Source: Felixounavirus LF82P3. From it: a stretch of 64,000 nt of DNA. This document shows, piece by piece, positions 5,928-7,906 of the stretch (within the stretch, counting starts at the first letter, position 1; each line of letters opens with the position of its first letter). Under the pieces are notes generated by a model. The model was not told the DNA's origin. It saw nothing but the letters and a program-made list of their open reading frames with translations, and made no database searches. The stretch is taken from sequence record OZ035772.1. The stretch is one strand, 5' to 3'. Position numbers and translations under genes: made by a program.

Positions 5928-6035
5928 AATGACCTCAAAGTTATATTAAATTTTGTATTACGTTGAGTATAAAAATAAGCTATAACACCTGACTTGTCAA
6001 CAGATTTTATAGCTTATTTGGCAGATTTTTTATAA

Positions 6036-6307
6036 GGCTACTGCCATCCTTCCATACCTTACCTTACCACACCTAACCATACCTAACCAAACTACACCAT
6101 ACAATACCTTGTTAAAAGACCCTCTTAAAAGACCTTTTAAAAAGGTAAGTCTCATTTTAATGTAGTTGAGACTAACTACCCATACTTTACCTTACCAGAC
6201 CAGACCTCACCCCGCCTTACCGCACCAGACAGCACAATGCAGTACAGTACCTTATTAAAAGACCCTGTTTAAAGACCTTTTAAAAAGGAGCCTCCGAAGA
6301 GGCTACC
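6036..6307. repeat. Intergenic repeat units: G-depleted CA-rich tracts, CTTAAAAG-type motifs, conserved hairpin AGTCTCA-12nt-TGAGACT (6148..6173); GAGCCTC/GAGGCTC hairpin (6287..6304) acts as minus-strand terminator
   Basis: Near-identical unit recurs at 7440..7690; plus strand nearly lacks G over ~60 nt stretches. Confidence 0.6.
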
Positions 6308-6315
6308 TAGTCAAC

Positions 6316-6756
6316 TTAGAAAGGTTTTCTACGTTGCTTGTTAATGTTGGCTTTCATAGCAGCTAAGTGGTTTTGCTGTTCAATCAGTCGTGAGCGTTCT
6401 TGATGGCTAAGTGCCATAGTGTTCACATTCTCAATAGCTTGAGTGGCTTGCTTTAAAGCTCGACCAATCTTACCAGACATTTTACGTTTTGCAATAGTTG
6501 CTTGATGCTTAGGTTCAACCACACGATAACCAACACCCATTGAAGCAACCAGATAAATCTTCTCTTCTTTAAGAAGCTTTTCAATAAACTTCTCAAGTCG
6601 GTTTAGACGTGTAAGTGCATAAGCCTTCATTTCATCTTCGTACTTAACAATGTCACCTTGATAAGTTGGCTTCACAATACCTAAGAAGGTGTCCATCTCA
6701 GAATGTGATACAGTGTCACCGTAACTAAACTTTGCTGCTAATGCTTTTGTATTCAT
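6316..6756 (-). CDS. Hypothetical protein
   Basis: ORF flanked on both sides by the repeat units. Confidence 0.4.
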   Translation of the reverse strand: MNTKALAAKFSYGDTVSHSEMDTFLGIVKPTYQGDIVKYEDEMKAYALTRLNRLEKFIEKLLKEEKIYLVASMGVGYRVVEPKHQATIAKRKMSGKIGRALKQATQAIENVNTMALSHQERSRLIEQQNHLAAMKANINKQRRKPF

Positions 6757-6758
6757 AA

Positions 6759-7361
6759 TTAAACGTTACCTTCTGAAATAACTTCTACAGAAAAACGACC
6801 AAAGCGTGGACGCCAATCACCTACACCACAAAGGTTGCCAGCATTTTCCAGAACCATCAGAAGTTCCTCTCTGGTGATTTGCTCTTCATCGAACATCAAA
6901 CCGAACTCTACAGACCAGTCACGGAAGATTGGACGGTAACTCATAACTCGTGCTGTACCAATCTTAACAGACTTAGCATAGATAAAGTCTGGATTCTTAG
7001 CAAGTTCTTGTGGGTTTGCTGGACAGTTCTTGATAGTCATTGGGAAGACTACATCTGTCAGCATAATGGCTCGGTCAATTACCTTACCAAGTTTGTTGAG
7101 TTTTGCACCAGACTTGATACAAGCTTCAATCATCTCACCGTTCATAACAAAACCAAGTTGCTCATCGTAGTAACAAGAAGTTACCAGTTGGCTTTCTGCT
7201 AAGAGCGCATAGTCTTCGTCAGTCTTTTTACGTTTACTGGACAGAGACTTGTGATATTTTGTCAGAGGGTTTAATGGGTCTGACAGAGTATCTGCATGGC
7301 TCAGGAAAGGACGAGTACCAGTGATTTTGATATTTAACAGTTTCATAGCATTTAGCTCCAC
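6759..7361 (-). CDS. Hypothetical protein
   Basis: ORF; track start is GTG, internal ATG alternatives exist. Confidence 0.4.
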
Positions 7362-7439
7362 ACTTTAGTTGATTGTTAAGTTGTTTGTAAAGAACCCTCA
7401 ACAGAAGACTCTTTAGAAACTTGGTAGATTTTTAACGTG

Positions 7440-7690
7440 GCTACTACCATCCACCCATACCGCGCCACACCCCACCTTACCAGACCATACACCACCCCAC
7501 CCCACCTTATTAAAAGACTCTGTTTAAAGACCTTTTAAAAAGGTGAGTCTCATTTTAATGTAGCTGAGACTAACTACCCATACCTCACATCACCGCACCA
7601 TACTACACCTGACACCACCTTACACCACCGCACCATACCTGACCGAGCTACACATCACTTAAAAACCCTCTTAGAAGACTCTTAAGTGAT
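7440..7690. repeat. Second copy of intergenic repeat units (hairpin AGTCTCA/TGAGACT at 7546..7571)
   Basis: ggctact(g/a)ccatcc..., CA-rich G-depleted tracts, ttaaaagac...ccttttaaaaagg, same hairpin as at 6148. Confidence 0.6.
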
Positions 7691-7906
7691 GCTGGTGAGT
7701 ACCCGTTGGTCTATGCTGCTCAGTATACTCACCAAATTTTCTATGTCAACAACTTTTTATATAAAAGTCCTGATAGCTATATGTGTTACAAAACAAAAGA
7801 TTGTGAACAAAACACCCATTGCAAAGGATGTGTTCAAAAGTTTACTTGTGATGTAAGACAACACAAAGACAACTAATGCAAACAGAATGATTGTACTTAA
7901 CATAGT

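Follow-up and report, generated by a model that had tools for sequence, protein, structure and literature searches.

Organization of the locus

We analyzed a 64-kb stretch of the Felixounavirus LF82P3 genome (sequence record OZ035772.1; hereafter, the window), in which two long intergenic spacers with repeated units flank a two-gene cassette (locus region 5928-7906). The segment 6019-7749 on the minus strand is very probably a complete locus of type II VIPR (Viral Interference Programmable Repeat) that belongs to the clade of Escherichia phage SUSP1, here in a Felixounavirus (we put the probability of this reading at roughly 0.93). VIPR was first described in a preprint of 25 June 2026 (bioRxiv 10.64898/2026.04.26.720920). 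The kind of system is already described, and this copy falls within the clade that was characterized by the authors of the preprint.

Every gene across window positions 2441-13354 is carried on the minus strand; therefore, the locus must be read on that strand, and the window features given below are on the minus strand unless the plus strand is indicated. In the direction of reading, the DNA ligase gene (9007-7907) is followed by a small hydrophobic open reading frame (ORF) of 48 amino acids (7903-7757, phrog_22006), a 395-nt upstream spacer, a 195-amino acid gene (vipr, 7346-6759), a 146-amino acid gene (vap1, 6756-6316), a 388-nt downstream spacer and, beyond the locus, a 127-amino acid gene (5927-5544). 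The range 6316..7361 that the initial annotation gave for the gene pair is slightly off, as the first gene begins at the ATG at 7346, with the Shine-Dalgarno sequence GGAG upstream, and not at the GTG at 7361. The 48-amino acid ORF, which lies between the ligase gene and promoter P1, is found in some relatives only, independently of the VIPR cassette. The 3-kb neighborhood shares 92-95% identity with many Felix O1-like phages (Felixounavirus, Ounavirinae).

The elements between 6019 and 7749 are arranged in the order P1, vrRNA1, vrRNA2, vipr, vap1, terminator, vrRNA3, vrRNA4, where vrRNA denotes a VIPR guide RNA. Promoter P1 (7722..7749, TTGACA-16-TATACT) matches the sigma-70 consensus at 11/12 positions and is located upstream of vrRNA1, vrRNA2, vipr and vap1; the same position is kept in SUSP1 and in every relative. 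An inverted repeat, GGTGAGTA...TACTCACC (7694-7733), spans the -10 box of P1 and the transcript start, and could be a modulator of P1 or the 5' end of the primary transcript. The intrinsic terminator after vap1 (6282..6304) consists of AGCCTC-TTCG-GAGGCT and a T run that enters the next leader hairpin. Promoter P2 (5972..6000, TTGACA-17-TATTTT) serves the gene 5544-5927; it is the boundary of the locus and lies outside VIPR. The vrRNA4 tail is immediately followed by an inverted repeat of 19 nt, AAATAAGCTATAA...TTATAGCTTATTT (5973-6019), which brackets the -35 box of P2 and precedes a T run; this structure may be the terminator of the vrRNA transcript.

Structure of the repeat units

In each unit, a leader hairpin of 19 bp is followed by 10-15 GGYNN pentamers and then by a pseudoknot tail of approximately 33 nt. 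The leader hairpins occur in two related forms, HEAD and BOX. For vrRNA1, the HEAD hairpin (7653..7691, 19 bp including several G.U pairs, delineated by folding and repeat analysis) is followed by a guide of about 15 pentamers (7579..7652) with the NN code GT TC CA AT GC GG AA GG CA GT AT GC GA GA, and by a 3' tail (7546..7577) that is predicted to fold into an H-type pseudoknot with an A-rich loop 3 (stem S1 GUAG/CUAC, stem S2 AGUCUCA/UGAGACU). In vrRNA2, the BOX hairpin (7505..7543) contains AAGACCTTTTAAAAAGG, the guide (7453..7504) has 10 pentamers with the NN code GG GG GG AT CT AA GG GT GC, and the tail (7422..7454) is a predicted pseudoknot variant that contains ggctactaccatcc (S1 GUGG/CCAC, S2 UGGUAG/CUACCA). 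The BOX hairpin of vrRNA3 (6250..6288) precedes a guide of about 14 pentamers (6181..6249), the first five of which are degenerate (UGY), and a tail pseudoknot of the vrRNA1 type (6148..6179). Finally, vrRNA4 has a BOX hairpin (6107..6145), a guide of 11 pentamers (6050..6106) with the NN code AT AT GT TT TA AT TA GT AA AA, and another pseudoknot variant as its tail (6019..6051, containing ggctactgccatcc; S1 AAGG/CCUU, S2 UGGCAG/CUGCCA).

The folding energies of the leader hairpins are lower on the minus strand than on the plus strand: -20 versus -9.7 kcal/mol for HEAD (z of -6.3 on the minus strand), and -14.4 versus -9.8, -11.3 versus -8.1 and -15.1 versus -14.4 kcal/mol for the others. These hairpins may be processing sites. 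The same modules recur in the spacers of relatives, that is, the 39-nt leader hairpin in its two forms, the pentamer array and the 3' element, which has three forms. According to our structural model, every tail variant would fit a single H-type pseudoknot, both stems of which show compensatory changes. The variants of S1 are GUAG/CUAC, GUGG/CCAC and AAGG/CCUU, and those of S2 are AGUCUCA/UGAGACU, AAUCGGA/UYCGAUU, UGGUAG/CUACCA and UGGCAG/CUGCCA, with GUCG/CGAC in the satellite element described below.

Much of this had been noticed in the initial annotation, which reported near-identical units with G-depleted tracts and a conserved hairpin on both sides of the gene pair. The repeats are indeed present, as four copies of a family of about 94 nt (6052-6145, 6195-6288, 7450-7543 and 7598-7691), and the similarity of the two sides is seen in a 182-nt pair with 75% identity (6057-6238 versus 7455-7636). 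The 17-mer AAGACCTTTTAAAAAGG has three exact copies, against 0.56 expected matches at up to 3 mismatches, and GGCTACTRCCATCC has two copies. We likewise recovered the hairpin AGTCTCA-12-TGAGACT, which, with its flank, has two copies against none expected and corresponds to stem S2 of the pseudoknot tail. The G-poor tracts (6029-6126, 6167-6238, 7428-7532 and 7561-7674) account for four of the five segments in the 64 kb with an excess of C over G of at least 20 per 60 nt; they are G-depleted because pentamer arrays are being viewed from the opposite strand. Two details have to be revised. The sequence ggctactgccatcc, taken for the start of a unit, lies at the 3' end when the unit is read on the sense strand, in the vrRNA4 tail, and the reported palindrome exists but is one half of the 19-bp leader hairpin. 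The suggestion that small RNAs arise from the GU-rich strand was the right idea, as the units appear from their sequence to be guide RNA (vrRNA) genes on the minus strand.

The feature that had been missed is that the tracts are strictly 5-nt periodic, with the pattern (G/U)G(U/C)NN on the minus strand in a single register. The four tracts are the four strongest 5-nt-periodic segments of the 64 kb, with a Fourier power of 3.8, 3.2, 1.9 and 1.5, compared to a 99.9th percentile of 1.48. We compared the region with 23 related IMG/VR loci and with Felix O1, tootiki, garuso and SUSP1. The 78 tracts found in 26 related loci represent 60 distinct sequences, and their nominal lengths change in steps of 5 (42, 47, ... 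77), some being off by 1 at fuzzy motif boundaries. Across 783 pentamers, G occupies position 1 in 74% and position 2 in 96%, and position 3 is Y in 99% (T in 87%, C in 12%), while positions 4-5 are near random, at 1.9 bits each. Such a pattern, with three positions spared and two randomized, is unlike the decay of a simple repeat and therefore points to selection.

Identification of the VIPR system

As described in the preprint, VIPR consists of a small RAMP protein (Vipr, ~20 kDa), an accessory protein (Vap) and vrRNAs, each made of 9-16 YNNGG repeats and an invariant, pseudoknotted tail of ~40 nt, located in long spacers around vipr (bioRxiv 10.64898/2026.04.26.720920). The model is SUSP1, with the gene order vrRNA1-vipr-vap1, one vrRNA upstream and three downstream; its vrRNAs are RNAs of ~100 nt (array plus tail) that co-purify with Vipr, and vap1, whose product is predicted to bind DNA (winged-helix or helix-turn-helix (HTH)-like), enhances the block of transcription (bioRxiv 10.64898/2026.04.26.720920). 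The SUSP1 ribonucleoprotein binds double-stranded DNA by a 1-nt skip, on either strand and without a protospacer-adjacent motif, and blocks transcription. The NN dinucleotides pair with DNA and one base is skipped between them; VIPR is presented as a mode of reading DNA with RNA, with 2/5 of the guide bases pairing with 2/3 of the target bases. Guides of the SUSP1 clade are aimed at a satellite phage, without self-targeting, and reprogramming of the NN positions was carried out by the authors (bioRxiv 10.64898/2026.04.26.720920).

The window locus agrees with this description in its Vipr protein, guides, tails and layout. The product of vipr (6759..7346) is a 195-amino acid minimal RAMP (Cas7-like) protein, whose RRM core is accompanied by a glycine-rich loop and a thumb, assigned from the RAMP fold and from its identity to SUSP1. 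It is 97.5% identical over 200 amino acids to the syntenic SUSP1 protein (KT454805.2, 28477-29076), which exceeds the >90% cut-off that the authors used for the SUSP1 VIPR clade. Synteny is also seen with the SUSP1 locus, which is built from the same modules (HEAD-array-tail, vipr, vap1, terminator and three units) and reproduces the 1 + 3 layout of the preprint; therefore, the first gene of the window cassette is vipr and the second one is vap1. The 146-amino acid Vipr-accessory protein encoded by vap1 (6316..6756) is assigned by position and synteny with SUSP1; it has few homologues and a weak structural model, and a structure search gave nothing informative. Both cassette proteins are listed in Pfam and PHROGs as "unknown function" only. 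The window guides contain 10-15 pentamers with a conserved GGY and hypervariable NN, within the 9-16 GGY/NN pentamers expected of vrRNAs, and vipr and a single vap gene, flanked by long vrRNA-bearing spacers, make up a minimal locus.

Like its SUSP1 counterpart, the window system is located between the DNA ligase gene and the 127-amino acid gene, has the same gene order, and combines leader hairpins, GGYNN guides of 10-15 repeats and pseudoknot tails. It differs in the host genus (Felixounavirus, not Suspvirus), in having two vrRNAs upstream and two downstream, compared to one and three in SUSP1, and in its guide sequences.

Class 1 CRISPR-Cas effectors, in which Cas7, Csm3 or Cmr4 form filaments on a CRISPR RNA (crRNA), are another close comparison. 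We found no cas1/cas2, no other cas genes and no CRISPR array of identical direct repeats with contiguous spacers in the neighborhood of the locus, and repeat analysis there finds the vrRNA units only. Unlike in Class 1 systems, the VIPR guide is non-contiguous, with 2/5 of the RNA bases pairing with 2/3 of the DNA bases, and the carrier is a virulent phage. By analogy, VIPR can be considered to work like a Cas7-crRNA filament, yet it is not CRISPR-Cas. The authors of the preprint proposed VIPR as an ancestor of CRISPR effector proteins (bioRxiv 10.64898/2026.04.26.720920).

The association between such arrays and Vipr extends beyond these phages. A pattern search of IMG/VR for seven consecutive GGTNN units returned at least 120 contigs, many with degenerate arrays, often in long tandem series with a constant end. 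With a Vipr profile, a Vipr homologue was found beside the array in 32 of the 45 loci with degenerate GGTNN arrays, versus 4 of the 75 with simple microsatellites. Some unrelated contigs contain up to 1.2 kb of back-to-back GGTNN arrays with a Vipr homologue immediately upstream (L124 3233-4390, L046 2200-3410, L036 3396-3843 on the minus strand, L043, L035, L123 and others). Those arrays end in the constant motifs GGCAGTT, GGAATGGTTTAATGAATTTAAT or GGCTAATG; presumably, these contigs represent other VIPR types with a different array architecture.

The co-occurrence bears on a group of readings in which the GU-rich arrays are elements for a host factor, namely sites for a TRAP-like ring protein or an RNA sponge, boxA/boxB/boxC antitermination signals, antisense Rho-loading sites, or an R-loop or G-quadruplex replication origin downstream of P1. 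A triplet spaced by 2 nt recalls TRAP sites, GGGUCUUUUAACAA resembles the rrn boxA, the C-rich and G-poor plus strand is similar to a rut site, and a G-rich non-template strand does lie downstream of a strong promoter. None of these readings predicts a RAMP protein beside the arrays in 32/45 unrelated viral loci, or hypervariable NN positions that match foreign DNA with a 1-nt skip (see below), and the region has no Rfam family match, even at E up to 10. We consider such readings highly improbable.

Several specific candidates of this and related kinds were also considered and rejected. The boxA-like GGGUCUUUUAACAA of an rrn-type boxA/boxB/boxC system is simply an arm of the leader hairpin. 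The fixed GGY, the hypervariable NN and the match to foreign DNA are left unexplained by this system and, equally, by a TRAP-like ring protein or RNA sponge, an antisense-strand rut site, an R-loop or G-quadruplex origin downstream of P1, an RfaH ops-like sequence (GGCAGUAGCC) in the tail, Chi-like or RecA hot spots, and BREX-site (GGTAAG) decoys.

Predicted targets of the guides in satellite elements

We searched complete Escherichia coli genomes with the unit and found a vrRNA-like array with the same tail in 123 of them. In E. coli 1EC213, the array is located in an 11.8-kb element (L149 6150-17955) inserted in yecE (DUF72). This element has genes for a serine recombinase, a tape-measure protein and a baseplate protein, the last of which is 72% identical at the amino acid level to Felix O1 ORF165. 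DNA related to this satellite is present in 549 of the 5,426 complete E. coli genomes (further copies are L150-L155 and L166-L170). Some satellite copies carry a vrRNA of their own (L149 15984-16048, L148 13986-14045), with a covarying tail and a terminator, and the guide of the L148 satellite matches other satellites at 19/22.

To score targets, 61 distinct guides from relatives were scanned without gaps against 12 satellites (134 kb), with different numbers of bases skipped between consecutive NN dinucleotides. When one base was skipped, 39 of the 61 guides matched satellites at >=85%, 30 at >=90% and 3 perfectly; skips of 0, 2 and 3 bases yielded 0, 1 and 1 guides, respectively, at >=85%. 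In an earlier scan of seven satellites at >=80%, there were matches for 35 real guides versus 1 shuffled guide. No match was found for the guides in 20 kb of flanking E. coli DNA. At the sites where the reading frame was worked out by hand from coordinates, the skipped base is the wobble position of the codon. The 1-nt skip, the skipped base at the wobble position, and the target itself, an E. coli satellite whose baseplate and tape-measure genes resemble those of Felix O1, are all shared with SUSP1 VIPR.

As for the guides of the window, vrRNA1 matches the satellite tape-measure gene at 27/28 (shuffled maximum 21) and vrRNA2 matches the same gene at 17/18 (shuffled maximum 15), while vrRNA4 matches at 18/20 (shuffled maximum 17) a site 30-60 nt upstream of the first gene of the satellite leftward operon. 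No match at >=80% was found between the window guides and the 64-kb window, i.e., there is no self-targeting. Judging from these matches, vrRNA1 and vrRNA2 would be aimed at the tape-measure gene, and vrRNA4 at the region immediately preceding the leftward operon's first gene; together, the three guides would repress a satellite that would otherwise parasitize the phage. Most likely, the phage uses the locus to silence this parasitic element.

The same results allow us to weigh an alternative in which the units are plain transcription punctuation, that is, terminator-promoter modules or structured 5'/3' untranslated regions of the two-gene operon with no guide function. The terminator-promoter units and the structured untranslated regions proposed in the initial annotation are of this kind. 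The spacers do contain a strong sigma-70 promoter and an intrinsic terminator, and the hairpins of the units are stable, but the promoter and the terminator are accessories that lie outside the repeated unit. Punctuation also leaves unexplained the strict 5-nt register with fixed GGY and free NN, the steps of 5 in tract length, the match of the NN code to satellites under the 1-nt skip only, and the adjacent RAMP protein; its probability appears to be minimal.

Four points weigh against the identification of the locus as a working VIPR system. The boundaries of the guides, in which the last, constant NN is dropped, were our own choice. The best match of vrRNA3 to the 12 satellites, 21/26 in a Dam-like methyltransferase gene, equals the shuffled maximum of 21 and is not significant. 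No convincing promoter was found for vrRNA3 and vrRNA4, which sit behind the intrinsic terminator. Last, for this phage the molecular mechanism would follow by analogy from one preprint on a 97.5%-identical system. It should be added that a sigma-70 promoter within BOX was considered as a source of vrRNA3 and vrRNA4 and rejected: no acceptable -35/-10 pair was seen on reading the sequence, and the consensus scan listed none.

Solo guides that match vipr

The 86-kb genome of Felix O1 contains exactly one array, and neither vipr nor vap1 is present in it. We assembled a set of 12 Felixounaviruses without vipr and vap1 (loci including L003, L006, L017 and L158-L165), each of which has a single vrRNA between the ligase gene and the 127-amino acid gene; these 12 phages have seven distinct solo guides. 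Scoring of all guides against the window gave strong matches only for guides of cassette-less phages, and these matches were inside vipr. For five of the seven solo guides, the best match in the 64-kb window lies inside the 588-nt vipr, and only with the 1-nt skip; the sixth behaves likewise, although weakly. A vipr-matching solo guide is present in Felix O1 and in nine others of the 12 phages, while L004 and SP4 are without a clear target.

The matched sites are distributed over both strands. The solo guide shared by Felix O1, Si3, SUT_S820, skuden and mio matches vipr at 6850-6878 (minus strand, 19/20); that of ULIM9 and DE7 (with a weaker match for D1-2) at 6954-6985 (minus strand, 20/22); that of EC6 at 7285-7307 (plus strand, 16/16); and that of JH2 at 7318-7343 (plus strand, 17/18). 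The skipped base is the codon wobble base at the first and third of these sites, where the frame was worked out by hand. We also compared the guides, trimmed to a core, with 18 vipr alleles (L001-L026, L147). Matches were perfect in 17 alleles for the JH2 guide, 11 for the ULIM9 guide, 9 for the EC6 guide and 4 for the Felix O1 guide. In the remaining nine alleles, the EC6 guide matches at 12-14/16; these alleles may be escape variants.

The reverse comparisons gave no such signal. No vipr match was found among guides from cassette-bearing phages, and the guides of VIPR-carrying phages produced only short, chance-level matches to the Felix O1 genome.

One interpretation suggested by these matches, to which we give even odds, is that solo vrRNAs are guide-only "Trojan" elements that exploit the Vipr of a rival against its own vipr gene. 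In a mixed infection, the solo vrRNA would load onto the Vipr of the competitor, which would then be turned on a sequence that every Vipr-producing rival must carry and that the sender does not have; as a result, the VIPR of the rival would be silenced or would target itself. Virus-borne mini-CRISPR arrays, solitary repeat units and RNA anti-CRISPRs are likewise guide-only or repeat-only viral elements, with an effector encoded elsewhere that they either use or jam. They offer the nearest parallel to the solo vrRNAs of Felixounaviruses without vipr, but they belong to another RNA family and act on another effector, and the solo vrRNA guide appears to be aimed at the effector gene itself. In the preprint, vrRNAs of a Pseudomonas clade target other VIPR systems and satellites carry their own vrRNAs; the discovery pipeline begins from Vipr proteins, and solo guides in phages without vipr are not mentioned in the main text (bioRxiv 10.64898/2026.04.26.720920).

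Presence and absence of the cassette among relatives

Felixounaviruses differ in whether they carry the two-gene cassette, and Felix O1 is among those without it. The region is matched by 259 records, and vipr is held by 132 records; the full system appears to be present in about half of these Felix O1-like phages. Unit numbers vary as well: cassette-less phages have 1-2 in all, and cassette-bearing phages have 2-3 upstream and 1-3 downstream. In five loci (L005, L008, L014, L021 and L025), the spacer from the ligase gene to the 127-amino acid gene is devoid of vipr and vap1, yet contains two vrRNAs with satellite-matching guides. Two of these, L008 and L025, retain the first and the last guides of the window. 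Such loci resemble the product of a deletion between the repeated modules on either side of the cassette.

This patchy distribution, together with the two-unit loci L008 and L025, which keep the guides that a deletion between modules would leave, can be read in favor of a model in which the units are recombination scars or hot spots, that is, GT-rich repeats that mediate insertion and loss of the cassette and have no function of their own. The preference of RecA for GT-rich DNA may also be counted for it. Under this model, decay would be expected to be even across positions, but the GGY is kept and only the NN varies, and the NN code is informative, matching both the satellite and vipr. We regard the scar model as very unlikely; recombination between the units is best regarded as a by-product of their repeated nature. 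The initial annotation had raised footprints of cassette insertion as a possibility. The cassette is indeed absent from Felix O1 and many relatives; however, the repeats are functional parts of the cassette and not scars. A recent horizontal spread of the cassette was also considered and is not supported, since identity between phages of 96-98% in the cassette DNA versus 89-98% in the flanks fits purifying selection rather than a sweep.

Other features of the window

The genes in the neighborhood of the locus encode the ligase, an HTH regulator, dihydrofolate reductase, thymidylate synthase and proteins of unknown function. Two further regions of the window are repetitive. The first one (46600-48170) is unrelated to the VIPR locus and has 1.5 kb without ORFs of >=70 amino acids, dozens of TGTTAAGA, TGTTAGAA and CTTGTTAG motifs, and TATAG-type repeats; it may be a replication origin, a packaging region or a terminal region. 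The second one (42830-43040), just upstream of a promoter-like region, contains three direct repeats of about 24 nt (TTCATTTTCAAAACTGTGCAGGT-like) followed by a C-rich, G-poor tract (42951-43036). This tract has no 5-nt register and is not a vrRNA.

Implications

These results indicate that a VIPR locus, of a system reported only months ago, can be recognized by a blind reader in raw sequence, and they provide an independent check of the targeting code on different phages and satellites. The picture of VIPR now also takes in Felix O1, the classical typing phage for Salmonella, and the phages related to it, some of which keep only a single, vipr-matching guide. If the solo guides work as proposed, they would represent an RNA-only counter-measure to an RNA-guided system, and would be a simple off-switch for VIPR.

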